Source of the DNA: Formosa sp. Hel1_33_131
GTDB taxonomy: Bacteria > Bacteroidota > Bacteroidia > Flavobacteriales > Flavobacteriaceae
Length of the DNA: 32,000 bases
Assembly: GCF_001735745.1 (NCBI RefSeq)
Contig: NZ_CP017260.1
Coordinates: forward strand, 2,430,001-2,462,000
Direction: 5' to 3'
Made by a program: the position numbers and the translations under genes
Shown here: positions 6,645 through 29,251 of the stretch, in pieces
Position numbering within the stretch: position 1 is the first letter of the stretch
Layout: each line of letters opens with the position of its first letter
Notes under the pieces: model-generated
Database searches by the model: none
Seen by the model: the letters and a program-made list of their open reading frames with translations, nothing else
What the model was told of the DNA's origin: nothing

Positions 6645-8453
6645 TTAAAAACAATAGCCATTTTCTTCTTTGACTTTTTCTGCAATTTCAATACGTAAAT
6701 CTACAATATCCGGATAGTTCGCATATTTTGTAAAACGCTTCAGTCCCATTAACATCATGCGTTGTTCGTCGCCTTCAGCAAAAGAGATAATACTTTCTTT
6801 TCCTTTTTCTTCAACGGTATCTACGGCATGGTATAAATATAATTTAGCCATCGCTATTTGTGCCGATTGCTCTTTTTGACTTGTGCGCTTCACATTTTTC
6901 TCCGTTCGTAAAATTGAAGATTCTGCCATGTAGATTTCAATTAAGATATCAGCAGCAGCAATTAACAATTGTTGATGCTCTTCAAGTTGAGGTCCATATT
7001 TTTGAACCGCACCCCCAGCAACCATCAAGAACGTCTTTTTCAATTTCTTAATCATTTCTTTTTCTTCTGAAAATAATTCAGAGTAATCGGGTGTTTCAAA
7101 AGAGGGAATGCCCATGAGTTCTTCTTGAACTTTCGATGCAGGGCCTAATAAATCAAGATGTCCTTTCATTGCTTTTTTAACGAGCATACCCACAGACAAC
7201 ATTCTGTTAATTTCGTTGGTACCTTCATAAATACGTGTAATTCTAGCATCTCTCCAAGCAGATTCCATAGGGGTTTCTTCAGAGAAGCCCATACCACCAA
7301 AAATCTGAATTCCTTCATCGGCACAATTTTGTACATCTTCAGAAACCGCCACTTTTAAGATGGAACATTCAATCGCATATTCTTCAACGCCTTTTAGTTC
7401 GGCTTCTTGATGGGTATTTCCAGCCGCTTCACGTATTGCGATTCGGTCTTCAATATCTTTTGCAGCTCTATAAGTTGCAGACTCACAAGCATAGGCATTC
7501 GATGCCATTTCAGCTAGTTTTACTTTAATGGCTCCAAAGTCTGCAATAGGGGTGTCGAATTGTTTACGTTCCTTAGCATAATTTACAGCGATGGATAAGA
7601 TACGTCTTTGCGAGTCCAAACAAGCCGCAGCCAGTTTGATACGACCTACGTTCAGTGCATTCATTGCGATTTTAAAACCTTCACCACGTCCCGCTAACAT
7701 GTTTTCAACAGGTACCACACAATCGTTAAAAAAGACTTGACGTGTAGAAGACGCACGAATTCCTAATTTGTGTTCTTCTTCACCCAAAACGATACCGTTT
7801 GGTTTGTCACCATCATATTCAACAATGAAACCCGTAATATTTTTATCTCCTTCAATACGTGCAAATACAATCATCACACTACAGAAGCCTGCATTTGAGA
7901 TCCACATTTTTTGACCATTGATTTTATAGGATTTTCCATCAGCAGATAATTCAGCCGTTGTTTTTCCTGAATTGGCATCTGATCCCGCGCCCGGTTCTGT
8001 AAGGCAATAGGCTCCAAACCATTCTCCAGAAGCTAATTTTGGTACGTATTTTTGTTTTTGTTCATCAGTACCATATAAGGTAATTGGCATGGTTCCAATT
8101 CCTGTATGTGCACCAAAAGCAGTACTAAAAGACCCAGTTCCACTAGAGATGTAATCACAAGTCAGGCAAGTCGAGACAAAACCCATTCCCATTCCGCCAT
8201 AGGCTTCAGGAACAGCAACGCTTAAAAAGCCCATATCCCCAGCTTTTCGCATCACCTCTTCTGTTAACGCAAAATCTTTAGCTTCAAAGCGTGCCTTATG
8301 AGGAATGATCTCTCGGTCGTTGAATTCCATCACCGCTTCCTTCATCATTGTTTGCTCTTCCGTAAAATCTTCAGGTGTGAATACGTCTTCACATTTTGTT
8401 TCTTTCACTAAGAATTGACCTCCTCTGAGTAGTTGTTTGTCGTTTGTTTCCAT
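6645..8453 (-). CDS. acyl-CoA dehydrogenase (long, about 600-aa type)
   Basis: ACAD-family sequence throughout (CLTEPGAGSD, ...QIFGGMGF..., YEGTNEI) with a C-terminal extension typical of the 600-aa class. Confidence 0.92.
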   Translation of the reverse strand: METNDKQLLRGGQFLVKETKCEDVFTPEDFTEEQTMMKEAVMEFNDREIIPHKARFEAKDFALTEEVMRKAGDMGFLSVAVPEAYGGMGMGFVSTCLTCDYISSGTGSFSTAFGAHTGIGTMPITLYGTDEQKQKYVPKLASGEWFGAYCLTEPGAGSDANSGKTTAELSADGKSYKINGQKMWISNAGFCSVMIVFARIEGDKNITGFIVEYDGDKPNGIVLGEEEHKLGIRASSTRQVFFNDCVVPVENMLAGRGEGFKIAMNALNVGRIKLAAACLDSQRRILSIAVNYAKERKQFDTPIADFGAIKVKLAEMASNAYACESATYRAAKDIEDRIAIREAAGNTHQEAELKGVEEYAIECSILKVAVSEDVQNCADEGIQIFGGMGFSEETPMESAWRDARITRIYEGTNEINRMLSVGMLVKKAMKGHLDLLGPASKVQEELMGIPSFETPDYSELFSEEKEMIKKLKKTFLMVAGGAVQKYGPQLEEHQQLLIAAADILIEIYMAESSILRTEKNVKRTSQKEQSAQIAMAKLYLYHAVDTVEEKGKESIISFAEGDEQRMMLMGLKRFTKYANYPDIVDLRIEIAEKVKEENGYCF

Positions 8454-8496
8454 GTTCTTTTATAGATTAAAGAAGATAGAAAATAGAGAATAGACC

Positions 8497-8859
8497 CTAA
8501 TTGAGACTATTTTGAAACCCCATTGTCATTCTTTGGAATTCTTCTATTTTTTCTTCTATTTTTTTTAAAGTTTCGTTATTTATATAATTTCTATGTTTTG
8601 CTTCTAATAATTGTGTTCCTAACTCGAACGATGATCCTAAAGAGATATCTAAAAAATGACTAAAAGATTTATCTGTTCTTGAAGACCCTTCTGCAATATT
8701 GCTAGGCATTGAAACAGAACATCTACTTATTTGTGTACTTAAACCATATCGTTCGTGCTTTGGGAAGTCCAATAAAATATCCGAAATATCATTAGTAATT
8801 TCCAAGCCGAGATTCCAAATTTTCAAATTTTTGTAGTTATGTCTTTGTTTAGCACACAT
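8497..8859 (-). CDS. four-helix-bundle protein (23S rRNA intervening-sequence protein family)
   Basis: Family signature LKIW...FPKHERYGLSTQISRCSVSMPSNIAEGSSR...FLDISLGSSFEL. Much more AT-rich than its neighbours (13 G+C in the 60 nt at 8521-8580). Confidence 0.88.
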   Translation of the reverse strand: MCAKQRHNYKNLKIWNLGLEITNDISDILLDFPKHERYGLSTQISRCSVSMPSNIAEGSSRTDKSFSHFLDISLGSSFELGTQLLEAKHRNYINNETLKKIEEKIEEFQRMTMGFQNSLN

Positions 8860-8871
8860 TAGTCTTAATTT

Positions 8872-8899
8872 CTTTCCTCTTTCCTCTTTCCTCTTTCCT
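8872..8899. repeat. perfect tandem heptamer (CTTTCCT)x4, continuing as a degenerate pyrimidine tract to about 8923
   Basis: Read directly: CTTTCCT at 8872, 8879, 8886 and 8893. On the transcribed minus strand it reads (AGGAAAG)x4 and ends 12 nt upstream of the 8859 start codon. Confidence 0.95.
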
Positions 8900-8922
8900 C
8901 TTTTTTCTCTACTCTCTTGTTT

Positions 8923-10119
8923 CTAATTAAGGAATTCAAAAATCCCACACGCACCTTGTCCTGTTCCCACACACATGGTGACGGCTCCATACTTTCCATT
9001 CATTTTTTGCTTTCGCATTTCATCAAACAATTGAACCGATAGTTTTGCACCTGTACAACCTAAGGGGTGTCCTAATGAAATTGCGCCTCCATTTGGATTG
9101 ATGATATCAGGGTTGAGGTTTAATTCTCGGATCACTGCTAACGATTGAGAAGCAAAGGCTTCATTGAGTTCAATCAAAGACAAATCGTCTTGTTTTAATC
9201 CGGCTTGTTTCAATGCTTTTGGGATGGCTTTTACGGGACCAATCCCCATGATTCTTGGCTCGACACCTGCGGCTGCATAGTTGACCAATCGTGCAATCGG
9301 CTCTAAGTTTAATTCTTTTACCATGTCTTCACTCATGACCATGACAAAGGCGGCACCATCACTCATTTGTGATGAATTTCCTGCGGTTACGCTTCCACCC
9401 GCAGCAAAGACAGCTCTTAGTTTTGCTAATGCTTCATTACTCGTTCCGGCTCTTGGACCTTCATCTTTAGTGACTGTATAGGATTTTGTTGCTTTCTTTC
9501 CATTGGCATCAATATATGTTTGTTCTACATCAATCGGTACAATTTGATCTTGAAAACGATTTTCCGCTTGTGCGCGTAAGGCTTTCATGTGAGAGTTATA
9601 AGCAAACGCATCTTGATCTTCACGAGAAATTTTAAACTGATTGGCAACTGCTTCAGCCGTATTTCCCATGCCCCAATAATAATCTTCGTGACCTGCTTTT
9701 ACGATGTCGTAATTGAGTTCGGGTTTATAACCCGTCATTGGAACGCTGCTCATACTTTCAGCACCGCCCGCAATGATGCAATCAGCCATTCCAGCTTGAA
9801 TTTTTGCAGTTGCCATCCCAATCGTTTCGATTCCAGAGGAACAAAAACGGTTGACGGTGACCCCAGGAACATCTACAATATCCAATCCCATTAAAGAGAT
9901 GAGTCGTGCCATATTTAATCCTTGTGACCCTTCGGGCATCGCGTTACCAACAATCACATCGTCGATACGCTTTGGATCTAAATCAGGCAATTCTTTCATC
10001 ATGTATTTGATGGTTTCAGCTGCTAATTCATCGGTTCTTTTAAAACGGAATACACCTTTTGGTGCTTTCCCTACGGCGGTTCTGTAGGCTTTTACAATGT
10101 AAGCTTGTTTGCTATTCAT
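8923..10119 (-). CDS. acetyl-CoA C-acyltransferase (3-ketoacyl-CoA thiolase)
   Basis: Thiolase motifs VNRFCSSG (active-site Cys), NEAFA, GGAISLGHPLGCTG and CVGTGQG. Confidence 0.95.
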   Translation of the reverse strand: MNSKQAYIVKAYRTAVGKAPKGVFRFKRTDELAAETIKYMMKELPDLDPKRIDDVIVGNAMPEGSQGLNMARLISLMGLDIVDVPGVTVNRFCSSGIETIGMATAKIQAGMADCIIAGGAESMSSVPMTGYKPELNYDIVKAGHEDYYWGMGNTAEAVANQFKISREDQDAFAYNSHMKALRAQAENRFQDQIVPIDVEQTYIDANGKKATKSYTVTKDEGPRAGTSNEALAKLRAVFAAGGSVTAGNSSQMSDGAAFVMVMSEDMVKELNLEPIARLVNYAAAGVEPRIMGIGPVKAIPKALKQAGLKQDDLSLIELNEAFASQSLAVIRELNLNPDIINPNGGAISLGHPLGCTGAKLSVQLFDEMRKQKMNGKYGAVTMCVGTGQGACGIFEFLN

Positions 10120-10624: not shown

Positions 10625-13033
10625 CTAGTTACGAAGCGGTTTCCCCGTCGTCAACATATGCTGAATACGTTCCAATGTTTTTCGTTCTGTACAGAGACTC
10701 AAAAAAGCTTCTCTTTCAATGTCTAATAAATACTGTTCAGATACCAACGTTGGTTCTGATAAATCGCCACCCGCCATGACATACGCCAATTTGTTAGCGA
10801 TTTTCATATCGTGTTCCGAAATGTAGTTGCTATCCTGCATAGAGTCTGTTCCTACTAAAAACATCCCTAAAGCTTGTTTGCCCAATACTTTTACATCCGT
10901 TCTCATGATAGGTTGTGTGTATCCACTTTCAGCCATTAATTTAGCATGTTGTTTTGCAACCGCTATCTGTCTGTGTTTATTGACGACTACTACATCTTTT
11001 CCTTTTTGCAAAAGGTTTAAGTCGAATGCTTCATAAGCAGAAGTTGATACTTTTGCCATCCCAATGGTTAAAAAATGTTCTTGTAATACATTCAATTGAA
11101 CATCTCCTTTTTGGAAGGTATCGGAAGCTCTAAGAGCCATTTCTTTTGAACCCCCTCCGCCAGGGATTACCCCAACACCAAATTCTACAAGTCCCATATA
11201 GGTTTCTGCTGCAGCGACTATTTTATCGGCGTGTAAAGACAATTCACAACCGCCTCCTAAAGCCATACCGTGTGGTGCTGCTACCGTTGGAATGGAGGAA
11301 TAACGCATGCGCATCATGGTGTCTTGAAAGTATTTAATTGCCATATTGAGCTCGTCATATTCTTGCTCTGCAGCCATCATAAAAATCATTCCAATATTAG
11401 CACCCACTGAAAAATTCGCCCCTTGATTTCCAACGACTAAACCAGCAAAATCTTTTTCAGCCAAATCAATCGCATTATTTAAGCCTGCCAATACATCCCC
11501 GCCTATGGTGTTCATTTTAGAACGGAATTCACAGTTGAGAATGCCATCGCCTAAATCTTCAATCACCACGCCCGAATTTTTAAAGACTTCGTTAGATTTT
11601 CGAATGTTATCTAGGATGATAAAACTATCCTGCCCAGGGATTTTTTCTTGTGTCTTTTTAGGAATATCATAAGCACAAGTCGCTCCATTTTTAACCGTAT
11701 AAAAAGAAGTGTTTCCAGAAGCTAGCATGTCGTTCACCCAAGCAGCGGGTTCCAAACCTTCGGCTTTCATTAATTCAATTCCTTTTTCAACGCCAATCGC
11801 ATCCCAAATTTGGAAGGGGCCATGCTCCCAGCCAAATCCTGCTTTCATGGCATCGTCAATCTTATAAAGTTCCTCTGTAATTTCAGGAATTCGATTAGAG
11901 ACGTAACCAAAGAGTGCGGTAAAACTTTTACGGTAAAATTCGCCCGCCTTGTCTTTTCCTGCAACTAAAACTTTGAAACGATCAATGACGTTATCAATTG
12001 TTTTGGTTAATTCTAATGTGGCAAATTTTGCTTTTTGAGCCGAACGGTATTCAAGTGTGTTCAGGTCTAAAGTTAAAATTTCTTTTTTGCCTTCGGCAGA
12101 TACATTTTTCTTATAAAATCCTTGACCCGTTTTGCTGCCCAACCATTTGTTTTCCACCATGGTGTTGATGAAATCTGGAAGTTGAAAGGATTCTAAGCGT
12201 TCATCGTCTTTACAGTTTTCTGCAATTCCGTTAGCAACATGTACCAAGGTGTCCAAACCAACAACGTCCACCGTTCTAAAAGTGGCCGATTTTGGTCTGC
12301 CAATGACGGGACCTGTTAATTTATCAACAGCTTCAACAGTCATGTCCATGTCTTTAACTGCATGAAACAAACTCATAATGCTAAAAATTCCAATACGGTT
12401 TCCTATAAATGCAGGGGTGTCTTTGGCAATGACAGCCGTTTTTCCTAAAAATTGCTCTCCATAGCTTCCTAAGAACTCAAGAACTTCGGGATCTGTTTTT
12501 GGCCCTGGGATAATTTCAAACAATTGTAAATAACGCGCAGGGTTAAAAAAGTGCGTTCCACAAAAGTGTTTTTGGAAATCGTCACTGCGTCCTTCACTCA
12601 TGAATTTTATAGGAATTCCTGATGTGTTGGATGTAATTAAAGTGCCCGGCGTTCTGTGTTTTTCTAAGTTTTCAAACACCATTTTTTTGATGTCCAAACG
12701 TTCAACCACCACTTCCATGATCCAATCCACATCGGCTACTTTTGCGATGTCATCTTCCAAGTTACCGGTCGTAATTCGCTGGGCGAATTTTTGATGGTAA
12801 ATAGGGGAGGGCTTTGATTTTAAAGAGGTAGTAAGGGCTTCGTTCACCAATCGGTTTCTGACAGCTTTGTCTTCTAAAGTTAAGCCTTTAGCTTTTTCTT
12901 TGGCGTTGAGTTCTCTGGGAACAATATCTAAAAGTAATACATCGACTCCAATATTGGCAAAATGGCAAGCAATTCCGCTGCCCATGATTCCAGATCCAAT
13001 AATGGCAATTTTTTTGATTCGTCTTGTTTTCAT
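10625..13033 (-). CDS. fused 3-hydroxyacyl-CoA dehydrogenase / enoyl-CoA hydratase (FadB/FadJ-like)
   Basis: N-terminal Rossmann motif IAIIGSGIMGSGIA and 3-HCDH region. The C-terminal half is crotonase-like (GGGCELSLHAD). Confidence 0.93.
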   Translation of the reverse strand: MKTRRIKKIAIIGSGIMGSGIACHFANIGVDVLLLDIVPRELNAKEKAKGLTLEDKAVRNRLVNEALTTSLKSKPSPIYHQKFAQRITTGNLEDDIAKVADVDWIMEVVVERLDIKKMVFENLEKHRTPGTLITSNTSGIPIKFMSEGRSDDFQKHFCGTHFFNPARYLQLFEIIPGPKTDPEVLEFLGSYGEQFLGKTAVIAKDTPAFIGNRIGIFSIMSLFHAVKDMDMTVEAVDKLTGPVIGRPKSATFRTVDVVGLDTLVHVANGIAENCKDDERLESFQLPDFINTMVENKWLGSKTGQGFYKKNVSAEGKKEILTLDLNTLEYRSAQKAKFATLELTKTIDNVIDRFKVLVAGKDKAGEFYRKSFTALFGYVSNRIPEITEELYKIDDAMKAGFGWEHGPFQIWDAIGVEKGIELMKAEGLEPAAWVNDMLASGNTSFYTVKNGATCAYDIPKKTQEKIPGQDSFIILDNIRKSNEVFKNSGVVIEDLGDGILNCEFRSKMNTIGGDVLAGLNNAIDLAEKDFAGLVVGNQGANFSVGANIGMIFMMAAEQEYDELNMAIKYFQDTMMRMRYSSIPTVAAPHGMALGGGCELSLHADKIVAAAETYMGLVEFGVGVIPGGGGSKEMALRASDTFQKGDVQLNVLQEHFLTIGMAKVSTSAYEAFDLNLLQKGKDVVVVNKHRQIAVAKQHAKLMAESGYTQPIMRTDVKVLGKQALGMFLVGTDSMQDSNYISEHDMKIANKLAYVMAGGDLSEPTLVSEQYLLDIEREAFLSLCTERKTLERIQHMLTTGKPLRN

Positions 13034-13052
13034 CTAAGTATATATAGTGTTG

Positions 13053-13484
13053 TTAGAATATTTTTTTATTTGATATGAGGTTCATAATAGAATCCGATAC
13101 TTCATAAAAGTGGTTCAGCTTTTCTTCTGAAATTTCATTTTTAATCACACTGTTAAACTGTAAAACAATTTGTTTTACTTCCTCTCTGTTTTTAAGCCCC
13201 GATTCCGTCAGATGTATCAGTACACCACGACCATCATTTGGATTGGGTAAGCGTTCAATTAAACTCAAGCCTTCCAAGGTTTTTAAAATTCTTGATAGAC
13301 TTGTAGCTTCCATTCCCATTTTTGGACCCAATGATGTTGAAGGCGTCCCATTTTGTGGGTCCACACTTAGGAGGGTGAAACCTGTTGCCATTGTGATTCC
13401 ATTATCTGAAGCCTCTTCATTATACATTTTTTGAACCGCCAACCATGTGGTTCTCAAAACATAATCTATCGTTTTATCTTTCAT
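13053..13484 (-). CDS. MarR-family transcriptional regulator, first gene of the beta-oxidation operon
   Basis: Winged-helix region ...MEATSLSRILKTLEGLSLIERLPNPNDGRGVLIHLTESG. I prefer the ATG at 13484 (MKDKTIDYVLR...) over the track's TTG at 13508, because that TTG lies inside a TAnnTTTG -7 box. Confidence 0.85.
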   Translation of the reverse strand: MKDKTIDYVLRTTWLAVQKMYNEEASDNGITMATGFTLLSVDPQNGTPSTSLGPKMGMEATSLSRILKTLEGLSLIERLPNPNDGRGVLIHLTESGLKNREEVKQIVLQFNSVIKNEISEEKLNHFYEVSDSIMNLISNKKIF

Positions 13485-13505
13485 GCGTATTTTAATATCT
13501 AAACT

Positions 13506-13513
13506 CAAAGATA
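13506..13513 (-). promoter_or_regulatory. Bacteroidota-type -7 promoter box TATCTTTG for the MarR/beta-oxidation operon
   Basis: The minus strand reads TATCTTTG, matching the TAnnTTTG consensus, 21 nt upstream of the ATG at 13484. Confidence 0.45.
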
Positions 13514-13523
13514 GGTAAATATA

Positions 13524-13568
13524 TTATGCATGCATAGTAAAAAGCAAAAAAGTTATGCATGCATAGTA
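13524..13568. promoter_or_regulatory. duplicated operator-like palindrome, candidate MarR binding sites
   Basis: TTATGCATGCATAGTA occurs identically at 13524-13539 and 13553-13568. The core TATGCATGCATA (13525-13536 and 13554-13565) is a perfect 12-bp palindrome. The copies are 29 bp apart, and the proximal one sits where a -33 element would be. Confidence 0.6.
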
Positions 13569-13600
13569 TTATTTTGTATTTCTTTACGGTTAACTGCGTC

Positions 13601-13626
13601 GCTGTCGCACGAATCCTTTCGTGTGG
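13601..13626 (+). repeat. GC-rich hairpin repeat, copy 1 (inverted relative to copies 2 and 3)
   Basis: CGCACGAATCCTTTCGTGTGG at 13606-13626 is the exact reverse complement of the 21-bp core of copies 2 and 3. Stem CGCACGAA/TTCGTGTG, loop TCCT. Confidence 0.9.
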
Positions 13627-13724
13627 CTATAAACTTCTTCATCCTTTAGGTGTTTTTACGGGCTTAATTATATCCTAAAAGTATAACTGTTTATTATTGA
13701 TTTGCGTTAGTGTTGTCGATTATC

Positions 13725-13749
13725 AAAAAAAACAGATGAATCAATCTGT
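13725..13749 (-). terminator. weak rho-independent terminator downstream of the 142-aa ORF
   Basis: Minus-strand hairpin ACAGAT-tgattc-ATCTGT followed by a U-run (plus-strand A-run 13725-13732). The stem is only 6 bp and AT-rich. Confidence 0.35.
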
Positions 13750-13788
13750 AAGTTTTTAGGTTGTTTATCGTTGGTTATAAATCCCACA

Positions 13789-13814
13789 CCACACGAAAGG
13801 ATTCGTGCGGTAGC
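13789..13814 (-). repeat. GC-rich hairpin repeat, copy 2
   Basis: Core CCACACGAAAGGATTCGTGCG at 13789-13809. As minus-strand RNA it forms a 9-bp stem (CCGCACGAA/UUCGUGUGG) with a UCCU loop. An extra outer stem AATCCCA (13780-13786) / TGGGATT (13815-13821) is possible. It lies 99 nt downstream of the 142-aa ORF stop. Confidence 0.9.
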
Positions 13815-13912
13815 TGGGATTAAAAGAAATTCACCTTACGTTGATTTTATGAAATATGCAGCTTAAAATTAATTGAAATTTTATTTGTTTAAGTCATAGA
13901 ATACGGAGTGGG

Positions 13913-14341
13913 TTAATTATTTATCTGTCTATTTTTAATTTGTATATAAATCCCTCCAATCAGCATAGTAGCCATACTGAGAAGCCATAACCAATAACCA
14001 AATTCATAGCCTGTAATTTCTCCGTAGTTCCCTGCTTCATTTATAATAATTTCATTGAATAGAAGGAAACTTAACCCTATAAGCAGTGATATTAAACTCA
14101 ATACCAATGAAGTTTTTTTCTTACTATTAAATAGAATCCAGGAAACAATTAAAAGTGGATTGGCAAGCCAAGTTAAACATGCACCTCCAATAAATAAACC
14201 AAAAAAACCAGATAAAAATATTAGCATTCCACTGCCTATTTCACCACAATCACCATTTGTGCAATATGCTCTTTGACTCAATGAAATTAAAAAGAGACCA
14301 ATACTAATTACTAAAAAATATTTTTTCTTAATACGAACCAT
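13913..14341 (-). CDS. hypothetical multi-pass membrane protein (4-5 predicted TM segments)
   Basis: Hydrophobic segments FLVISIGLFLISL, MLIFLSGFFGLFIGGACLTWL, LLIVSWILF, LVLSLISLLIGLSFLLF and WLWLLSMATMLIGGIYI. I recognise no family motif. Very AT-rich. Confidence 0.6.
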   Translation of the reverse strand: MVRIKKKYFLVISIGLFLISLSQRAYCTNGDCGEIGSGMLIFLSGFFGLFIGGACLTWLANPLLIVSWILFNSKKKTSLVLSLISLLIGLSFLLFNEIIINEAGNYGEITGYEFGYWLWLLSMATMLIGGIYIQIKNRQINN

Positions 14342-14427
14342 TTATTGCATTTCTAAATTTATAGTTGAGATTGGTTTATTTACTTTTTTATAATCCGCTA
14401 AGTCAAAGATTTTGTGGAGCTGTGATA

Positions 14428-14453
14428 CCACACGAAAGGATTCGTGCGGCAGC
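14428..14453 (-). repeat. GC-rich hairpin repeat, copy 3
   Basis: Core CCACACGAAAGGATTCGTGCG at 14428-14448, identical to copy 2, flanked by GCTG (14419-14422) and CAGC (14450-14453). It lies 61 nt downstream of the 280-aa ORF stop. Confidence 0.9.
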
Positions 14454-14513
14454 GGGGGTTTCGTTCATTCAAATGGTAGGTAACGGTTTGGCTAAACTGC
14501 GTTTTAATGCAGT

Positions 14514-15356
14514 TTAGGTTTTGTTATCGTTATAGTCAATTACAGTGAAATATTTTTTAAATGACACTCCTTTTAAGATAGTAAATTCTTCATTTTGATA
14601 ATTTAGAGTCAAAGGACTCTGAACATTTAAATAAAAGCTACCGCTATGACCAATCCAAATTACTCGATATTCATTGTCCAAGGAATAACTATTTGGTTTT
14701 ATGAATAAATAATCTAAGTGCAAAGCATTGGAATGAAATTTTTTATCTATTTCTTTTTTAAATTCTTTAAAAGACCCATTTTTTAATACTCTATCTTTAT
14801 ATTCAATCATTTTAGAGCAAGAAATTAAAGAGTACCGATTAACCTTATTGTTCATTTTTTTTGTGATTAATTTAATTAATTCATTAGGGTTATTCACTTT
14901 TAAAAGTGCTACATCCTTTGCTAAACCAATACTTTCTCTAATTAAATGAATAACCTCCTCTCTCTTTTCTTTAGATATGTTTTTAGGAATAAGAGATAAC
15001 GATAAAGAGTATGGATTACCAATAGCTATAGGTTGATTTTTAATTGATAATCCTCCACTTCCTTTTATAGCTTTAAATTTTTTTGTTGCTTCAATTCCAA
15101 TATACTTTTTACAATCTTTACCTCTAAGCGTCCATTCCTCTTTGTCGGTATTTTCCCAATCTATCGAAATTGTCATTTCACCACTATCACATCTAGCATC
15201 ATTAAATTTTTTATTTCTTACAACTGAACCTATAAGAAAATTTCCTTCTTTACAAGATTTTAAGTCCTTTAAATCAATAAATTTAATGACATCAAAATCA
15301 TTTATAATATATTCTGGAATGCCCCCTAATGTGGTATTATTTCTGAATTTATACAT
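14514..15356 (-). CDS. hypothetical soluble protein, 280 aa, orphan (faint DUF2971-like motifs)
   Basis: Long ORF with no signal peptide or TM segment. 14 G+C in the 60 nt at 14521-14580, against 26 in a purL line. The motifs MYKFR, KKFNDARCD and NEYRVIW faintly recall DUF2971. This is from memory only. Confidence 0.55.
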   Translation of the reverse strand: MYKFRNNTTLGGIPEYIINDFDVIKFIDLKDLKSCKEGNFLIGSVVRNKKFNDARCDSGEMTISIDWENTDKEEWTLRGKDCKKYIGIEATKKFKAIKGSGGLSIKNQPIAIGNPYSLSLSLIPKNISKEKREEVIHLIRESIGLAKDVALLKVNNPNELIKLITKKMNNKVNRYSLISCSKMIEYKDRVLKNGSFKEFKKEIDKKFHSNALHLDYLFIKPNSYSLDNEYRVIWIGHSGSFYLNVQSPLTLNYQNEEFTILKGVSFKKYFTVIDYNDNKT

Positions 15357-15424
15357 TATTTTTCTTAACGATAACTAGCGTATATAAACCACTAGTGGTG
15401 TTTATTTTCATTATATTTTGTTTG

Positions 15425-15467
15425 GAGTGGTTCAATACATCCCAAATTGGCGTGTATTGAACCACTC
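15425..15467. repeat. 43-bp near-perfect palindrome / long hairpin upstream of the 280-aa ORF
   Basis: GAGTGGTTCAATACA (15425-15439) pairs perfectly over 15 bp with TGTATTGAACCACTC (15453-15467). The spacer contains the sub-palindrome CCAAATTGG. Confidence 0.9.
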
Positions 15468-15573
15468 TAGTTCCCCAAGTGTTATCTAAAATTTAAATAA
15501 AAAAATCGCTTACAATTGGTTAAGCTGCTTATGAAGATTTAGACTTGGGAGCTAAAATCAAAGATAAACTTAT

Positions 15574-15609
15574 AAAAAAAATCACGTACATCCAAAGATA
15601 CACGTGATT
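15574..15609 (-). terminator. rho-independent terminator of the acyl-CoA synthetase gene
   Basis: Minus-strand hairpin with an AATCACGT/ACGTGATT 8-bp stem and a 3-bp inner stem, followed by eight U (plus-strand A-run 15574-15581). It starts 42 nt downstream of the stop at 15652. Confidence 0.8.
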
Positions 15610-15651
15610 TTAACAGTTTGTGACTCAGAGTCAACGGAACTTAAACTAAAT

Positions 15652-17427
15652 TTAATCGTCTGTATAAATTTTAGAAACCAAATCTTTGTAGAGGTCAAAA
15701 ATGACACTGCGCTTCATTTTCATGGTAGGCGTGAGGTGCCCACCTTCAATACACCACACATCTGGAGTGAGCTCAAACCGTTTGATTTGTTCCCAATTCC
15801 CAAAGCCTTGGTTGGATTTGCTGACTTCTTTCTGGATGCGATCAATGATGATGTCAGACGCACAAATTGCTTCTGGTGTGGGTTCAAGATCAATATTCTT
15901 TCTTACGATCCATTCTTTGATAAACTCAAAATTAAGCTGAATTAAAGCCGCTGGCATTTTTTTATTTTCACCAATCACCATCACTTGTTCGATGAAATTA
16001 GATTCTTTCAAATCATTTTCAATTAGTGTTGGAATGATGTATTTCCCGCCCGAAGTTTTGAACATTTCCTTTTTACGCCCCGTGATTTTAAGAAACCCAT
16101 CGGGGTCAATTTCACCTTTATCACCTGTGTGAAAATAATCGCCACTCATGACTTCCGCGGTTTTTGTAGGATCTTTGAAATAGCCTACCATTACGTTTGG
16201 GCCTTTGATGAGAATTTCGCCATCCTCAGCAATTTTCACTTCCACATTAGAAATCGGTTTTCCAACCGTTCCAATTTTAAAATGATGATCCGTATGCATT
16301 CCCACCGAAACGACTGGAGACGTTTCTGTAAGGCCATAGCCTTCCATAATCATCATTCCCGATGCACAAAAAATACGTGCCAAGCGTGGGTGCAGGGCTG
16401 CACTTCCCGAAACCATGGTGTGCAACTCGCCACCGAGCGCGGCTTTCCATTTGCTGAAAATTAATTTTCGAGCTATTTTTAATTGAAATTCATACCAAAA
16501 TCCGTTGGCTTGGTACGGTTCGTAGCGTTCGCCTAGTTTGATGGCCCAGAAAAACAAGGCTCTTTTGATCCCTGTTAATTCGCTGCCTTTGGCGTTTATT
16601 TTATTAAATACTTTTTCTAACAAGCGTGGCACCACACTCATCAGGTTGGGTTTGATCTCCTGAGCATTTTCGCCAATCTTCTCGATGCTTTCAGCAAAAT
16701 AAATACTGATCCCTGCATGTTGATATATGTAGATCAATACACGTTCAAAAATATGACAGAGTGGTAAAAAACTAAGGACGCGCGTTGTCCCTTCCATTAA
16801 GGGGAGACGTGGCATACTTACCAACACATTTTCAACCACATTGTAATGAGACAACATCACGCCTTTTGGCTTTCCAGTCGTTCCAGAGGTATAAATAATA
16901 GTTGCTAAATCTGAAGGAATGACTTCTGCCTTTCGAGTTTCAACATCGGGTTGCGTACTTTCATCGGCACCCAGTTCAAATAATTCTGTATAATTTTCAC
17001 AACCTTCAATTTCATCAAAACTAAATACCTTTTTCAGTTTTGTGTTGTCTTTTACTTTGAGAACCTTGTTATAAACCTCTTCATCGGATACAAAACAGTA
17101 AACAGCTTCACTGTGATTTAAAACATATTCATAATCGTCCGAAGAAATTGTCGGATAAATCGGGATATTTTGCGCGCCAACTTGAAGCACTCCAACATCG
17201 ACAATACACCATTCGGTACGGTTGGTTGTCGAAATGACGGCGATTTTATCATTTTTTTGAACGCCCATTTTTAGTAAGGCCCTACTGAGTGCATTTGCTT
17301 TATCGAGGTATTCTTTTGTGGATGTTTTCACCCATTCGCCATCTTTCTTAGAAACCAAAGCGGCTTCTAAATTATGAGTCTCTAATTGATAATAAGCAAA
17401 GTCAAATAGTCGCGTAATTGGTTTCAT
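15652..17427 (-). CDS. long-chain fatty acid--CoA ligase (AMP-dependent synthetase)
   Basis: AMP-binding signature YTSGTTGKPKGVMLSH, with GYGLTETSP and TGDKGEIDPDGFLKITGRKKEMFKTSGGKYI. Confidence 0.92.
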   Translation of the reverse strand: MKPITRLFDFAYYQLETHNLEAALVSKKDGEWVKTSTKEYLDKANALSRALLKMGVQKNDKIAVISTTNRTEWCIVDVGVLQVGAQNIPIYPTISSDDYEYVLNHSEAVYCFVSDEEVYNKVLKVKDNTKLKKVFSFDEIEGCENYTELFELGADESTQPDVETRKAEVIPSDLATIIYTSGTTGKPKGVMLSHYNVVENVLVSMPRLPLMEGTTRVLSFLPLCHIFERVLIYIYQHAGISIYFAESIEKIGENAQEIKPNLMSVVPRLLEKVFNKINAKGSELTGIKRALFFWAIKLGERYEPYQANGFWYEFQLKIARKLIFSKWKAALGGELHTMVSGSAALHPRLARIFCASGMMIMEGYGLTETSPVVSVGMHTDHHFKIGTVGKPISNVEVKIAEDGEILIKGPNVMVGYFKDPTKTAEVMSGDYFHTGDKGEIDPDGFLKITGRKKEMFKTSGGKYIIPTLIENDLKESNFIEQVMVIGENKKMPAALIQLNFEFIKEWIVRKNIDLEPTPEAICASDIIIDRIQKEVSKSNQGFGNWEQIKRFELTPDVWCIEGGHLTPTMKMKRSVIFDLYKDLVSKIYTDD

Positions 17428-17509: not shown

Positions 17510-20500
17510 TTATTTTAAGGCCTCTAACCACAGTTTTGCATTCACAAATCCTTCTAACCAAGGCGAGACATCATCAGTTCTGTTTTCAGGGTAATGTGCC
17601 CAATTCCACTGAAAGGTCGAACGCTCAATATGCGGCATTGTTACCAAGTGACGCCCTGTTGCATCACACATCATGGCGGTGTTAAAATCGGAACCATTTG
17701 GGTTGTGGGGATAGGCATCGTAGGCATATTTACCGACAATGTTATAGTTGGACTCTTCATAAGGCAATTTAAACTTCCCTTCCCCATGAGATATCCAAAC
17801 GCCAAGTGTACTTCCCTCCAAAGACGAAAGCATCACCGAATTATTTTTCTGAATGGTGACCGACGTAAACGCACTTTCGTGTTTTTGAGAATCATTGTAT
17901 GTTAATTTCCCATGTTTTTCGTGTTCTGGGTTGATCAAATCCAATTCCATCCAAAGTTGACACCCATTACAGATGCCGACAGATAACGTGTCTGGACGCT
18001 CAAAGAAATTTTTGAGAGCCAATTTGGCCTTCTCATTGTATTTAAACGCGCCTGCCCATCCTTTAGCCGAGCCCAAAACATCACTGTTGCTAAAGCCGCC
18101 AACGGCTCCAATAAACTGGATATGTTCAAGAGTTTCACGTCCCGAAATTAAATCGGTCATGTGCACATCCTTCACGTCAAAACCAGCCAAATACATGGCG
18201 TTTGCCATTTCTCGTTCAGAGTTACTTCCTTTCTCTCTTATGATAGCGGCCTTTGGTTTGTTTGTTAGGTTGATATTAGGCAATTTCCCAGTGAACTGTT
18301 GTGGAAATTTATAGTTAAGTACTTGTGTTTTATAATTATCAAATCGATCTTTTGCCAATCCATTAGCCGTTTGTTTTTGATCGAGTAAATATGAGGTTTC
18401 ATACCACACATCTCTTAATTCATTGATGTTTAAAGCTAAATCATCCGATGCGTTTTTAATGTTTAAAACAGGCTGATTTGTCACGGTTCCAAGTTCATAA
18501 AAATCAATAGACACTTTTGATAGTTCGGCTGCTACAGAGGCATCTACTGCTTGAAATACAATCCCTGAATTTTCGGAGAATAACAGTTTGATACTGTCTG
18601 CTTCTTCAAGGGAATTCAAATCCAAATCGGCTCCTAAATTGGTATCTGAAAAACACAGTTCTAATAAAGTGGTGATCAATCCACCAGAAGCGACATCGTG
18701 ACCTGCTACAATTTTATTGTTTTGAATCAACTCTTGAAGTGTATTAAATACCGTTTTCACATAAGCTGCACTTTGTACGTTTGGCGTTTCTGTTCCAATG
18801 GTATTTAAAATTTGTCCAAAGGCACTGCCGCCTAATTTAAAAGCATCTTGAGATATATTGATGTAATAAATAGGACCTGCATTTTGTTTAAATAAAGGCT
18901 CTACCACTTTAGAAATCGCATTACAGTTTCCTGCCGCCGTAATAATAACCGTCCCTGGAGAGACCACATCGCCTTCAGGATATTTTTGTTTCATTGAGAG
19001 TGAATCTTTTCCTGTTGGAACGTTGATTCCTAAGTCAATCGCAAATTCAGAAATGGCTTCCACCGCGCTGTACAAGCGTGCATCTTCTCCTTCATTTTTA
19101 CAAGGCCACATCCAGTTGGCAGACAATGAGATACTATCTAAACCGTCTTTTAAAGGGGCCCAAATAATATTAGTAAGTGCTTCAGTAATGGCAGCACGAC
19201 TCCCAGCTTTGGGGTCAATAAGTGCCGCCACAGGCGCATGTCCTAAAGAAGTCGCAATCCCTTCTTGACTTGAATAATCCAAGGCCATCACACCCACATT
19301 ATTGAGCGGGAGTTGTAAGGGGCCAACACATTGTTGTTTGGCAACTTTACCACCCACACAACGATCGACTTTGTTGGTCAACCAATCTTTACAAGCGACA
19401 GATTCAAGTTTTAAAACGTCTTCAAGATAAATTTGAAATAAACTGCTGTCATAAGAAGCCGATTTGTAATTTCTGACAATGGTTTTATCTTCTAAAATCG
19501 TTTTAGGAGAGCTTCCAAACATGTCTTCTAAATTAAAATCCATAGGTTTATTTCCTGTAGATTTTGATTCAAATACAAAACGGTGATCGCCGGTTACGTT
19601 TCCCACCGTGTACATAGGCGAGCGTTCTCTGTCGGCAATTTTTTGTAAGGTATCAATATGTTTTTCAGCAATCACAAGCCCCATGCGTTCTTGAGATTCG
19701 TTGCCAATTAATTCTTTGTTTGAGAGGGTAGGATCGCCAACTGGAAGTTGATCTAAATCGATATGCCCTCCGGTATCTTCGACCAATTCTGACAAGCAAT
19801 TTAAATGTCCACCTGCGCCATGATCGTGTATGGATACAATGAAATTCTCTTCACTTTCAATCATGCCTCGCACGGCATTTGCAGCACGCTTTTGCATTTC
19901 AGGATTCGAACGTTGTACGGCATTTAATTCAATTCCGCTTGATAATGCGCCTGTATCTGCAGAGGATACAGCTGCGCCGCCCATTCCAATGCGGTAATTT
20001 TCGCCTCCGAGGATGACGATTTTATCATTTTTTTCAGGGGTGTCTTTCAGTGCTTGATCGGCTTTTCCGTAGCCAATCCCACCAGCTTGCATGATGACTT
20101 TATCAAATCCTAATCGTTGGGCGTCTTCCTGATGCTCGAATGTGAGCACCGACCCACAAATGAGGGGTTGACCAAATTTATTTCCAAAATCAGAAGCACC
20201 GTTAGAGGCTTTGATCAAAATATCCATGGGAGTTTGATAGAGCCAGTTCCGTTCTTTAAATCCAGCTTCCCAAGGTCGGTTGGAATTTAATCGCGAGTAA
20301 GAGGTCATGTAAACCGCTGTTCCTGCCAAGGGCAACGACCCTTTTCCGCCTGCGAGACGGTCTCTAATTTCGCCTCCAGAACCTGTTGCAGCCCCATTAA
20401 AAGGTTCTACAGTGGTGGGAAAATTATGCGTTTCAGCTTTGATGGAAATTACAGATTCAAAATCTTCTGTGGTATAGAAATCAGGTTTGTCAGCACTTTT

Positions 20501-21172
20501 AGGTGCAAACTGTTCTACGACGGGACCTTTTACAAAAGCAACATTATCTTTGTATGCTGATACGATGGTATTCGGGTGTTGTTTAGATGTTTCTTTTATG
20601 AGTTTGAAAAGGGAAGTTGGTTTTTCTTCCCCATCAATTACAAAGGTTCCGTTAAATATTTTATGGCGGCAATGCTCCGAATTGACTTGTGAAAATCCAA
20701 AGACTTCCGAGTCGGTGAGGGGTCTGCCTATTTTTTTACTGACTTGATTGAGGTATTCAATTTCATCGGCATTTAAAGACAGTCCTTCTTGCTGGTTGTA
20801 AGCAGAAATATCATTGATATTCAAAATCGGTTCTGGGGTGATGTCAATATCAAAACTCTGCTGGTGTAAGCCTTCAAATTTTTCTGAAATCATAGGATCA
20901 AAATCAGAAAAACCTTCTTCAATTGTATGAAATTCTTCGATTCGAATAATCCCTTCAATACCCATGTTTTGGGTAATTTCGACGGCATTCGTACTCCAAG
21001 GCGTAATCATTGCTGCACGTGGGCCTACAAAAGTTGAATTGAGTGTTGTCTGTTCTATTTTTGGTTGGTCACCAAAAAGCCATTGTAGTTTGGCGATCGT
21101 TTCGGGAGTTAATTCGTTTACGGTTTGAACTGCAAATACCTTTGTATCTAGGGTACCAAAGAAATGAATCAT
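17510..21172 (-). CDS. purL: phosphoribosylformylglycinamidine synthase, single-chain large form
   Basis: 1220 aa with the FGAM synthetase domain (SEHCRHKIF, GAATGSGGEIRD) and a C-terminal glutamine amidotransferase (GICNGCQ). Confidence 0.96.
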   Translation of the reverse strand: MIHFFGTLDTKVFAVQTVNELTPETIAKLQWLFGDQPKIEQTTLNSTFVGPRAAMITPWSTNAVEITQNMGIEGIIRIEEFHTIEEGFSDFDPMISEKFEGLHQQSFDIDITPEPILNINDISAYNQQEGLSLNADEIEYLNQVSKKIGRPLTDSEVFGFSQVNSEHCRHKIFNGTFVIDGEEKPTSLFKLIKETSKQHPNTIVSAYKDNVAFVKGPVVEQFAPKSADKPDFYTTEDFESVISIKAETHNFPTTVEPFNGAATGSGGEIRDRLAGGKGSLPLAGTAVYMTSYSRLNSNRPWEAGFKERNWLYQTPMDILIKASNGASDFGNKFGQPLICGSVLTFEHQEDAQRLGFDKVIMQAGGIGYGKADQALKDTPEKNDKIVILGGENYRIGMGGAAVSSADTGALSSGIELNAVQRSNPEMQKRAANAVRGMIESEENFIVSIHDHGAGGHLNCLSELVEDTGGHIDLDQLPVGDPTLSNKELIGNESQERMGLVIAEKHIDTLQKIADRERSPMYTVGNVTGDHRFVFESKSTGNKPMDFNLEDMFGSSPKTILEDKTIVRNYKSASYDSSLFQIYLEDVLKLESVACKDWLTNKVDRCVGGKVAKQQCVGPLQLPLNNVGVMALDYSSQEGIATSLGHAPVAALIDPKAGSRAAITEALTNIIWAPLKDGLDSISLSANWMWPCKNEGEDARLYSAVEAISEFAIDLGINVPTGKDSLSMKQKYPEGDVVSPGTVIITAAGNCNAISKVVEPLFKQNAGPIYYINISQDAFKLGGSAFGQILNTIGTETPNVQSAAYVKTVFNTLQELIQNNKIVAGHDVASGGLITTLLELCFSDTNLGADLDLNSLEEADSIKLLFSENSGIVFQAVDASVAAELSKVSIDFYELGTVTNQPVLNIKNASDDLALNINELRDVWYETSYLLDQKQTANGLAKDRFDNYKTQVLNYKFPQQFTGKLPNINLTNKPKAAIIREKGSNSEREMANAMYLAGFDVKDVHMTDLISGRETLEHIQFIGAVGGFSNSDVLGSAKGWAGAFKYNEKAKLALKNFFERPDTLSVGICNGCQLWMELDLINPEHEKHGKLTYNDSQKHESAFTSVTIQKNNSVMLSSLEGSTLGVWISHGEGKFKLPYEESNYNIVGKYAYDAYPHNPNGSDFNTAMMCDATGRHLVTMPHIERSTFQWNWAHYPENRTDDVSPWLEGFVNAKLWLEALK

Positions 21173-28288: not shown

Positions 28289-28819
28289 TTAAGCCTCTTT
28301 ATTGTCAGTTTTCTTAACGATTAATGCGACGATCAGTCCAATTAATGAATAAAATGCCAGTCCAAAAACAAAATTCTTGAATTGCATACCTAATGAAAAG
28401 TTGTCATTTTTAGCAGCTTCTTCTAAGGCAACTTGCATTGCTTCTTGAGGCATTCCAAAACGTTCCATGGTCTGCTTGGTGACAACTAATATTTGCTCAT
28501 TTATATAGGTGGCTGCTTCCGGATCGATAAACGTAAAAATAACAATTCCTAAGACTGTAGAAATAATTGATCCGATTAAGACGGTAATAAAATAAGAAGT
28601 AAAAGCGTCTTTAAAACTAATAAAACCATTTAATAATGTTCTAGATTTTATAGCTGAAATAACGCCGAAAGCGACGACGACTACAAATAAAATAATTCCA
28701 AGCCACCATTCAGTAAATAGATCAAGGTTGACAGCGTAAAGTAAGACGGTAATTAGTGATAAAATTCCTCCTAAGTAAAGACCATTGTTAGTAGCAGATG
28801 ATTTTGTTGTTGTTTCCAT
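28289..28819 (-). CDS. DUF4199-like membrane protein
   Basis: 176 aa with four hydrophobic segments. Its size, topology and position next to a GT2 gene match what I recall for the Bacteroidota DUF4199 family. No search was done. Confidence 0.6.
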   Translation of the reverse strand: METTTKSSATNNGLYLGGILSLITVLLYAVNLDLFTEWWLGIILFVVVVAFGVISAIKSRTLLNGFISFKDAFTSYFITVLIGSIISTVLGIVIFTFIDPEAATYINEQILVVTKQTMERFGMPQEAMQVALEEAAKNDNFSLGMQFKNFVFGLAFYSLIGLIVALIVKKTDNKEA

Positions 28820-28912
28820 AATTTTTGTTGATTTTTGTTAAGTTATATTAATAAGACTCAGGCTTCAAAGATAAGTTACATTTTTAATTAAAAAAATAAA
28901 ATTAATAAACTG

Positions 28913-28942
28913 TTGTAGTTTTGTAAAAAATATATAAATTTG
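28913..28942 (+). promoter_or_regulatory. candidate Bacteroidota promoter for L31: -33 TTG and -7 TAAATTTG
   Basis: TTG at 28913-28915, a 19-nt spacer, then TAAATTTG at 28935-28942. It ends 33 nt upstream of the ATG at 28976. Confidence 0.45.
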
Positions 28943-28975
28943 CAACTCGAAAAATCGAATTTAATAGTTTACGCG

Positions 28976-29227: not shown

Positions 29228-29251
29228 TTACATTTCTTTTAATTATACTAT

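Follow-up and report, generated by a model that had tools for sequence, protein, structure and literature searches.

The genes for an AMP-binding acyl-CoA synthetase and a MarR-type regulator are separated in the marine flavobacterium Formosa sp. Hel1_33_131 by an AT-rich islet that encodes two proteins, a soluble one of 280 amino acids (aa; open reading frame ORF280) and a membrane protein of 142 aa (ORF142). We analyzed this islet within a window of 32,000 nucleotides (nt; positions 2,430,001 to 2,462,000 of contig NZ_CP017260.1), and coordinates given without a contig are those of the window. An earlier sequence-only reading had taken positions 13570-15573 for one self-contained, acquired module in which the two proteins might act together in abortive infection. 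The comparisons presented here point elsewhere: the islet is likely a small, recently acquired flexible element at a recombination hotspot, a mosaic of two independently acquired single genes and a set of hairpins.

The Islet Is a Mosaic of Probably Exchangeable Pieces

The locus was compared with that of a sister Formosa species (L007), in which the flanks are 96-97% identical to those of the window and the synthetase is 98% identical. Four breakpoints (15372/73, 14403/04, 13903/04, and 13575/76) divide the alignment into alternating shared and unshared segments. Window 15700-15373 is common to both species at 95% identity; 15372-14404, with ORF280 and a single hairpin, has no counterpart in L007; 14403-13904, comprising ORF142 and its upstream region, is again common at 96.8% identity (L007 10400-10899); and 13903-13576, which contains two hairpins and no ORF, is not in L007, with sharing resuming at 13575. 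ORF142 is kept in L007 at 97% identity, while the place of ORF280 is occupied there by 2.3 kb with ORFs of 260, 293, and 156 aa, and that of the non-coding hairpin segment by an ORF of 136 aa. The L007 islet thus holds five co-oriented ORFs, and its islet ORFs gave no match in Pfam or PADLOC. The idea of one self-contained module is not supported by this comparison, given that L007 keeps ORF142 together with unrelated genes in the place of ORF280. Rather than a single system, the islet is a patchwork whose pieces are probably exchanged independently of one another.

The positions of the breakpoints bear on how the pieces are exchanged. The leader shared by the two species ends 16 nt before the ATG of ORF280 and 14 nt before the ATG of an unrelated gene in L007, and because homology stops just ahead of unrelated start codons, different genes have been placed behind a common leader. 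All four breakpoints fall in non-coding DNA, and those of two junctions (A and C) are 10-16 nt away from a start or stop codon. Since L007 keeps ORF142 and lacks ORF280, the former was already present in the common ancestor of the two species, and ORF280 was acquired or swapped in later. The leader also contains the large palindrome to which the sequence-only reading had drawn attention, and which proved real (15425-15467; fold z = -7.0).

The L007 islet has a repeat system of its own (L007 9874-11517), in which a hairpin, CCGCAAAGTC-TCT-GACTTCGCGG, occurs three times, approximately 60 nt upstream of successive ORFs, and inverted repeats of 39-51 nt lie downstream of ORFs. The 156-aa ORF, which overlaps one of the repeats, is possibly spurious. 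The motif found upstream of ORF142, ACTTAGCGGATTATAAAAAAG, is present as three repeats in the L007 islet.

The Synthetase-MarR Junction Is an Insertion Hotspot

Synthetase neighborhoods were compared across 80 related species, with the flanking genes placed by tblastn. The distance from the synthetase stop to the MarR start is below 300 bp in 50 of the 80 (median 124 bp), and adjacency of the two genes is therefore the ancestral state. About 20 species bear other inserts at this junction, of 0.3-5.7 kb, with differing cargo (at least ten distinct sets) and a GC content usually below that of the flank, which identifies the junction as a hotspot. The presence/absence polymorphism that had been predicted is thus borne out, and the ORF280 and ORF142 islet genes are missing from the junction in 78 of the 80 species. 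The MarR-side boundary, immediately beyond the operator at window 13575/13576, is the same in every relative, with homology picking up again at 13566-13577 and in most cases at 13571-13577. At the synthetase end, several relatives have 15487-15651 in common with the window as backbone, and the sister species has 15373-15651. Because both flanks are shared with relatives, the inserted DNA extends from about 13576 to 15372/15487, and its identity as acquired accessory DNA splitting two ancestrally adjacent genes is confirmed. The claim of an insertion was correct in this respect, and its extent had been set slightly too wide.

The cargo carried by other species at the junction is diverse. In a Formosa-like species (L015 8226-11210), it consists of two genes that could be a defense pair. 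The first encodes a helicase of the UvrD family (716 aa, C-terminal zinc ribbon), for which PADLOC gave GajB and the RTasHel model associated with DRT as the best matches, and the second encodes a protein of 232 aa that matched no family. Another gene pair is common to five species of Psychroserpens/Bizionia type (L046, at 7894-9348, and L051, L055, L082, and L083), and encodes a protein of approximately 145 aa (142 aa in the example) followed by a protein of 280-337 aa with a C-terminal LuxR/GerE helix-turn-helix. At the junction of seven further species there is a membrane protein of 130-134 aa that resembles DUF1761. One contig, L016 (CALSPC010000007.1), is labeled "uncultured Rhodobacteraceae," and its purL-synthetase-MarR-fadB region has 91-93% protein identity to the Formosa window; for that reason the contig or its bin appears to be misassigned.

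ORF142 and Its Link to Lipase Toxins

ORF142 has about five hydrophobic segments by hydropathy, in agreement with the multi-spanning protein described earlier, and gave no match in Pfam, NCBIfam, PADLOC, or PHROG scans. Its family comprises 69 homologous clusters in Bacteroidota, including Galbibacter, Hymenobacter, and Mucilaginibacter, with the invariant motifs W58-x-A-N-P, SFLLF, and E102-x-G...G-Y-W-L-W; conservation of this strength argues for a real, constrained protein. No homologues were found in viral contigs.

Eleven distinct genomic contexts of the family were sampled, with approximately 4 kb per side where the contig allowed. In two of them a toxin gene stands directly upstream on the same strand. 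The homologue P0016 begins 7 nt after a 703-aa gene with an RHS repeat and a PF26363 "Phospholipase-like" domain (L099/L100), and on four related contigs (L104-L107) P0021 begins 12 nt past the end of a PF26363 gene of 286 aa. The 286-aa protein is an Rhs C-terminal fragment, starting with the core/toxin boundary motif PYNYxxNNPxxxxDxDGM (PYNYAENNPIINIDADGM) and carrying a GHSLGG lipase elbow, and the 703-aa protein has the same C-terminal domain behind an Rhs core. In searches of PDB sequences both lipase domains match 7UBZ_B, a type VI secretion system (T6SS) lipase effector (E 2.7e-6 and 1.7e-8), and the Rhs core of the 703-aa protein matches TccC/YenC (E 1e-11). 7UBZ is the Tle-Tli complex of Enterobacter cloacae, the founding member of the Tle6 group (PMC11470151). 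The two toxin domains are 55% identical to each other and P0016 and P0021 are 57% identical, so the linkage between toxin and downstream gene has survived considerable divergence. ORF142 is 49-50% identical to P0016 and P0021.

The gene directly downstream of a polymorphic toxin on the same strand, in Rhs, contact-dependent inhibition (CDI), and T6SS loci, is the cognate immunity gene. In the window no toxin gene adjoins ORF142, since the upstream ORF280 has no PF26363 or other Pfam match and no similarity to the lipase toxins. With relatives in the immunity position and no toxin alongside, ORF142 would be an orphan copy. On balance we favor ORF142 as a putative orphan immunity protein against Tle6-like lipase toxins, an interaction suggested by homology and gene position. 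A role in defense is better supported for it in the form of interbacterial immunity than of abortive infection.

The remaining contexts are varied. The homologue P0006 is followed by a 264-aa ankyrin-repeat protein (L108 1006-1800). Known Tle6 immunity proteins are periplasmic ankyrin-repeat lipoproteins, and their pairing with Tle6 lipases has been reported as invariable (PMC11470151); the arrangement in L108 suggests two immunity-type genes side by side. Other homologues lie within co-oriented runs of small ORFs with no Pfam match (L095, L102), and that of Galbibacter orientalis is in a variable region (L092; JH651379.1, 414197-422619). The Galbibacter region also contains a Gp49/HTH toxin-antitoxin pair, a DpnII-MboI-like gene, an AAA_14/DUF4143 ATPase, and a Cas9-Cas1-Cas2 locus, and a close relative (L091) has different neighbors at the same place. 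Several observations weigh against the immunity assignment. A toxin is directly upstream in only two of the 11 contexts; two homologues are in ordinary, housekeeping-looking neighborhoods, so that the family may have another primary role; and a partner with five transmembrane (TM) segments would be unusual for Tle6 lipases, which are reported to be always ankyrin-paired (PMC11470151).

ORF280 Belongs to a Rare Soluble Family

ORF280 is soluble, as previously proposed, with a maximum Kyte-Doolittle 19-residue mean of 0.92. The full-length protein has no usable match in Pfam, NCBIfam, PADLOC (E <= 1), or PHROG; the sequence-only reading, which could assign neither ORF to a family, was right about both proteins in this set of scans. 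Relatives are few. A word-indexed search returned a near-identical fragment only, a HMMER search of 1.84 billion representatives returned 20 family proteins (18 at E < 1e-10), an alignment-based search of a 5.8-billion-protein set returned only three, and metagenome and viral scans added only two short contigs. With ORF280 and P0084 (a relative described below) as tblastn queries, plasmids gave no match and phages gave noise only (E 7-9). The identical protein is encoded on 14 metagenome contigs, always at this locus, and several of these contigs end just past ORF280, near the hairpin.

An alignment of ORF280 with 15 relatives (A1; 16 sequences) has the conserved blocks FLxGSxxRNKxF[DN]DxRxDxGE, GNPLSLSLS, Y186, and KPxxYxx[DE]xE-[FY]-RxxW. 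Y186 is the sole column conserved at 90% or above, and [DE]227-x-E229 is present in all 13 sequences that cover it. AlphaFold with A1 gave a confident model (pLDDT 88.5, pTM 0.84), against a pLDDT of only 34 in a single-sequence run. Foldseek searches with the model found no relative in PDB (best E 0.8, TM < 0.2) or BFVD. Two leads were discarded: a PDB sequence profile search with A1 gave only two chance matches, to designed beta-trefoils, and the "GHSGS" string of ORF280 was rejected as a lipase nucleophile elbow, as its Ser is not conserved in the family.

Relatives of ORF280 are solitary genes in unrelated places, one of them adjoining uvrB (L090). Another, P0090 (L087 6324-7815; 31% identity), sits in a patch of GC 0.33 on a contig that is mostly 0.5-0.67, next to an IS4-like transposase fragment with a YxxRWxIExxF motif. 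Solitary, AT-rich occurrence in unrelated places indicates that the family moves horizontally. The remainder of the L087 contig encodes many small ORFs with no Pfam match and a P-loop protein of 470-506 aa; the contig may represent a plasmid or a virus whose host is GC-rich.

Hairpin Repeats of a REP/BIME-Like Family

The islet contains three copies of CCACACGAAAGGATTCGTGCGG where none is expected by chance, and the other 30 kb of the window contain none. The three GC-rich hairpins had been described as identical; three there are, two of them exact and one with a single mismatch. Copies A and B (Table 1) form stable structures in the transcribed strand (z = -3.6 and -5.1), and their outer stems differ. 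The conserved unit is 34 nt, CCACACGAAAGGATTCGTGCGG-N-AGCGGGG, with a sharp 5' edge (alignment A4), and its exact 20-nt core is found in four IMG/VR contigs of GC 0.25-0.37. A covariance-model search of 1.13 Mb showed that copies occur mostly as inverted pairs, 73-146 nt apart with unrelated linkers: copies C and B in the window, two pairs in L112 (185-392 and 3588-3774), and one each in L111 (4737-4895) and L114 (16-219). The pairs of L111, L112, and L114 have a 22-nt core identical to that of the window element and stand between small accessory ORFs on AT-rich contigs classed as viral in IMG/VR. Approximately 1 Mb of related loci held no copy save one weak match (E 0.01), at the same hotspot of L016 and downstream of a different, 100-aa ORF; its hairpin differs and is still paired. 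Copy A and the L016 copy have the common tail AGC[GT]GGGGTTTCGT, a 14-mer found nowhere else in 1.1 Mb.

The hairpin appears to be an undescribed family, with no Rfam match, that resembles the repetitive extragenic palindromic (REP) sequences and bacterial interspersed mosaic elements (BIME) and belongs to Flavobacteriia-type genomes. Its copies may terminate transcription, stabilize RNA, behave as selfish repeats of REP type, or serve as sites of recombination. The C/B pair was also considered as a miniature inverted-repeat transposable element, and this was rejected: there is no target-site duplication, the sharp conserved edges point toward each other, and the DNA between the copies differs from locus to locus with no relationship. 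An attC site was rejected as well, since inspection after both ORFs found no core sites, no dedicated attC model having been run.

As in REP/BIME of Proteobacteria, the islet elements are short, GC-rich, and imperfectly palindromic, have a conserved tail alongside, lie in intergenic DNA, and often form inverted pairs with a short linker between them. They differ in having a G[TCG]AGCG tail 3' of the palindrome, where REP has GTAG 5', and in being concentrated in accessory DNA. Hallmarks of REP/BIME are many copies over ordinary intergenic regions and an associated RAYT transposase.

Competing Explanations

The favored account, that of a small mosaic islet, runs as follows. The hotspot would sit between the synthetase terminator and the MarR/beta-oxidation operator of marine Formosa. 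The ORF142 cassette would have been inherited from the ancestor common to the sister species, and ORF142, in the membrane, would neutralize a lipase effector delivered by rival bacteria. The ORF280 cassette, present in this lineage only when set against the sister species, would supply a cytoplasmic protein of a rare, horizontally mobile family; a single-gene defense or toxin-like effector is the leading guess for its function, and another orphan immunity protein the alternative. Three 34-nt REP/BIME-like hairpins would mark cassette borders, and cassettes would probably be swapped by recombination in the conserved flanks or at repeated intergenic elements. A point against this account is that its recombination mechanism is inferred from the breakpoints only.

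If ORF280 and ORF142 formed a two-component abortive-infection or anti-phage module acquired as a unit, one would expect them to travel together. The genes are co-oriented, 172 nt apart, both AT-rich, and both within the insertion, and defense systems are known in which a small membrane protein accompanies a soluble sensor or effector, which counts for such a module. However, the sister species has ORF142 without ORF280, and HMM searches found the two families apart in 11 contexts of ORF142 relatives and three of ORF280 relatives, two of the latter on short contigs; taken with L007, this absence of co-occurrence from the contexts sampled is the outcome that the sequence-only reading had itself named as contrary to its proposal. 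Moreover, a REP-like hairpin, the stop-codon hairpin, and a cassette breakpoint lie between the genes, neither protein matches PADLOC, and ORF142 relatives have another recurrent partner, the lipase toxins. Nothing was found in favor of the abortive-infection link, and we regard a two-gene module as very improbable. Still less credible is that the ORFs belong natively to the fatty-acid degradation regulon as accessory genes, for instance as a membrane protein that handles fatty acids. They do share the orientation of the fad genes and immediately precede the MarR operator, and one ORF142 homologue (L101) is approximately 2.5 kb from an AMP-binding synthetase gene, but they are absent from the junction in nearly all of the related species, their GC content at third codon positions (GC3) is about half that of the neighbors, a strong terminator separates them from the synthetase gene, and ORF142 homologues occur in unrelated contexts. 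What stands of the original proposal is that the DNA is acquired, accessory, and plausibly defense-related in a broad sense; the two-gene abortive-infection module does not.

A more serious alternative, which we consider possible and yet less probable than its contrary, concerns ORF280 by itself as a stand-alone anti-phage abortive-infection effector of the DUF2971/PDC-S31 kind, with an ADP-ribosyltransferase (ART)-like fold as proposed for lactococcal Aristaios, modifying phage or host nucleic acid or protein. PDC systems are candidates found embedded in BREX, DISARM, or type I restriction-modification loci (10.1101/2024.01.29.577857), and DUF2971 is a predicted ART-like family with a conserved Tyr (motif II) and ExE (motif III), kin to DarT and AbiGi (PMC12522546). 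P0084, a 130-aa C-terminal fragment of a family member (E 8e-16 to ORF280 in the library search, 6e-23 in pairwise BLASTP), matches PADLOC PDC-S31 at E 7e-6, with residues 20-109 colinear with profile positions 107-196 of 245 and a similar protein length, and the same region matches Pfam DUF2971 at E 0.022 (16.5 bits; gathering threshold 22). The sole Pfam match of the C-terminal half of ORF280 is DUF2971 in the same register (E 1.1; 11.1 bits, same threshold). Y186 and [DE]xE229 fall in the DUF2971-aligned stretch and parallel the Tyr of motif II and the ExE of motif III, an equivalence that rests on sub-threshold alignments, and the gene, AT-rich and mobile, stands alone in its different hosts. 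Against this, all DUF2971 scores are below threshold, and 14 of the 16 A1 sequences and the family consensus give no DUF2971 match. PDC-S31 matched one of the 16, P0084, so that the link comes from one 130-aa fragment, and PDC-S31 is itself a candidate. ORF280 has no meaningful PADLOC or Pfam match of its own, and Foldseek matched its model to no ART or other fold in PDB and BFVD. ORF280 may just as well be a further orphan immunity protein.

The arrangement of the islet also recalls integron-like arrays or those termed recombinase-associated acquired interbacterial defense (rAID), in which single-gene cassettes, here with a 3' hairpin, would be moved by a site-specific recombinase encoded elsewhere. 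Short co-oriented low-GC genes with repeated intergenic motifs are found in rAID-1 (10.1101/471110; PMC12247911), in L007 five co-oriented ORFs are accompanied by repeated hairpins and inverted repeats particular to that islet, half of the breakpoints are close to start or stop codons, and copy A and the L016 copy share their tail despite different paired hairpins. But no recombinase gene flanks the islet (the neighbors are the AMP-binding synthetase and MarR), and the recombinase-sized ORFs of the window, of 315 and 390 aa, are glycosyltransferase and nucleotidyltransferase-like. Moreover, visual inspection revealed no core sites of attC type, inverted pairs of the hairpin are also present in unrelated accessory DNA, an arrangement closer to REP/BIME, and the data are accounted for just as well by homologous recombination in the conserved flanks. 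We consider such an array unlikely. A bolder combination is given a similarly low probability, namely a recombinase-less array of defense and immunity cassettes in marine Flavobacteriaceae, resembling rAID or integrons but outside gut Bacteroidales, in which units would be swapped whole between fadD and the MarR-fad operon, each ending in a hairpin and the tail AGCKGGGGTTTCGT, with ORF142 as a new Tle6 immunity family and ORF280 as an ART-related protein of new fold.

Gene Order, Base Composition, and Other Features of the Locus

Along the minus strand the gene order is purL, the AMP-binding acyl-CoA synthetase, ORF280, ORF142, MarR, and the FadB-like gene (Table 1). The closest genome to the window by its synthetase is an uncultured Formosa metagenome-assembled genome, at 98% amino-acid identity.

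Table 1. Features of the synthetase-MarR junction and its neighborhood (window coordinates).
Feature	Position	Strand	Remarks
purL	17510-21172	-	
AMP-binding acyl-CoA synthetase	15652-17427	-	Pfam
Synthetase intrinsic terminator	15578..15611	-	15-bp stem, then T-run; backbone, outside the insertion
Shared leader upstream of first cassette	15373..15577	-	95% identical to L007 7728-8055
Promoter-like box TAnnTTTG (Bacteroidota type) in leader	15566-15559		
Palindrome in leader	15425-15467		21-nt arms
16-bp palindrome in leader	~15385-15402		AAACCACTAGTGGTTT
ORF280 cassette	14404..15372	-	variable segment, absent from L007
ORF280	14514-15356	-	280 aa; 172 nt from ORF142
Hairpin overlapping ORF280 stop codon	14492..14517	-	fold z = -4.6; terminator-like on + strand
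Hairpin copy A	14420..14464	+	downstream of ORF280, antisense to the genes; tail CAGCGGGGGTTTCGT; 59.3 bits
ORF142 cassette	13904..14403	-	also in L007; upstream motif ACTTAGCGGATTATAAAAAAG at 14380-14403
ORF142	13913-14341	-	142 aa, ~5 TM
Non-coding variable segment	13576..13903	.	inverted pair of the hairpin repeat, copies C and B
Hairpin copy B	13781-13825	+	
Hairpin copy C	13590-13634	-	
MarR promoter/operator	13506..13575	-	two TATGCATGCATA palindromes; backbone; fixed left boundary of the hotspot
MarR	13053-13508	-	Pfam
FadB-like gene	10625-13033	-	

The drop in base composition reported from the sequence is real, and the 60-nt counts on which it was based are exact (14 G+C at 14521-14580 vs 26 at 17521-17580). 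Positions 13570-15573 have a GC content of 0.297, against 0.383 in the remainder of the window; this is the lowest-GC stretch of the window at this size, among the lowest 1.7% of same-size windows. ORF280 and ORF142 have GC contents of 0.265 and 0.296 (neighbors 0.40) and GC3 values of 0.19 and 0.21, compared with 0.35-0.38 for the flanking synthetase, purL, and FadB-like genes and 0.32 for MarR. A second AT-rich dip in the window, at 28500-29250 (GC 0.26-0.28 in 500-nt windows), surrounds a 176-aa ORF (28289-28819) and the intergenic DNA ahead of 29305.

The synthetase terminator (15611-15578) and the duplicated MarR operator palindromes (13521-13569), both already recognized from the sequence, were verified, and the terminator lies inside the stretch common to relatives L008, L014, L015, and L016. 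On the MarR side there is a TAnnTTTG box at 13513-13506. This box, of Bacteroidota type, overlaps the TTG at 13508 from which the MarR ORF is listed, and most relatives align from residue 9 onward (MKDKT...); judged from these alignments, the true start of MarR is probably the ATG at residue 9. An Rfam scan of 12500-16500 at E <= 1 gave no match, and the window has no tRNA genes. A sigma-70 promoter scan returned fewer matches than shuffled controls and was set aside, as the model is not applicable to Bacteroidota.

Relation to Known Systems and Significance

The nearest known counterpart of the islet is rAID-1 of gut Bacteroidales, which combines a XerD-like recombinase, co-oriented short low-GC genes, integron-like intergenic repeats, and homologues of immunity genes (10.1101/471110; PMC12247911). 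The islet genes are likewise co-oriented, of a size within the 100-300 codons of rAID genes, well under their host in GC content, and accompanied by intergenic repeats, and the approximately 50% identity of ORF142 to its toxin-linked copies is inside the rAID range of 30-62%. The orientation and GC content of rAID-1 are thus found in the islet, and its repeats and immunity-gene homology in part: the three hairpins also occur outside such arrays, and ORF280 has no tie to toxin-linked immunity genes. The differences are that the islet lacks a XerD-like tyrosine recombinase at its 5' end, has two genes (five in L007), and is located in marine Flavobacteriaceae, at a fixed hotspot between housekeeping genes and with REP/BIME-like hairpins. 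We did not class it as rAID because the recombinase is absent at its flanks. As for integron cassettes, no intI integrase adjoins the islet, and inspection revealed no attC cores (RYYYAAC/GTTRRRY), with no attC model run.

The two proteins likewise have partial counterparts. ORF142 homologues are located downstream of toxin genes on the same strand, in the canonical toxin-immunity layout of Tle6/Rhs pairs such as E. cloacae Tle-Tli (PDB 7UBZ/9CYS; PMC11470151). The Tle6 immunity proteins are periplasmic ankyrin lipoproteins, however, whereas ORF142 is a five-TM protein with no detectable similarity to them, and the window has no toxin gene. ORF280 resembles DUF2971 (PF11185), Aristaios, and PDC-S31 in size (245-316 aa), in being a solitary mobile gene, and in the Tyr and [DE]xE of the aligned region, but ORF280 and most of its relatives score below threshold and Foldseek identified no ART fold in PDB or BFVD. 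Its N-terminal, beta-rich half carries the FLxGSxxRNK and GNPLSLSLS motifs.

The islet is best described as a small flexible, or mixed defense/immunity, islet at a conserved hotspot. It is not a new kind of system; what is new are two undescribed protein families and a tidy hotspot. ORF280 offers a small soluble target with a confidently predicted structure, no PDB match, and a weak tie to ART-like defense proteins, and the synthetase-MarR junction is a natural experiment that can be mined for new defense and immunity genes. If the reading of ORF142 is true, it would add an integral-membrane immunity family for Tle6-like phospholipase toxins. Orphan immunity genes have so far been studied mainly in gut Bacteroidales, and ORF142 would then indicate that such genes are also traded among free-living marine Flavobacteriaceae that co-bloom after phytoplankton blooms.

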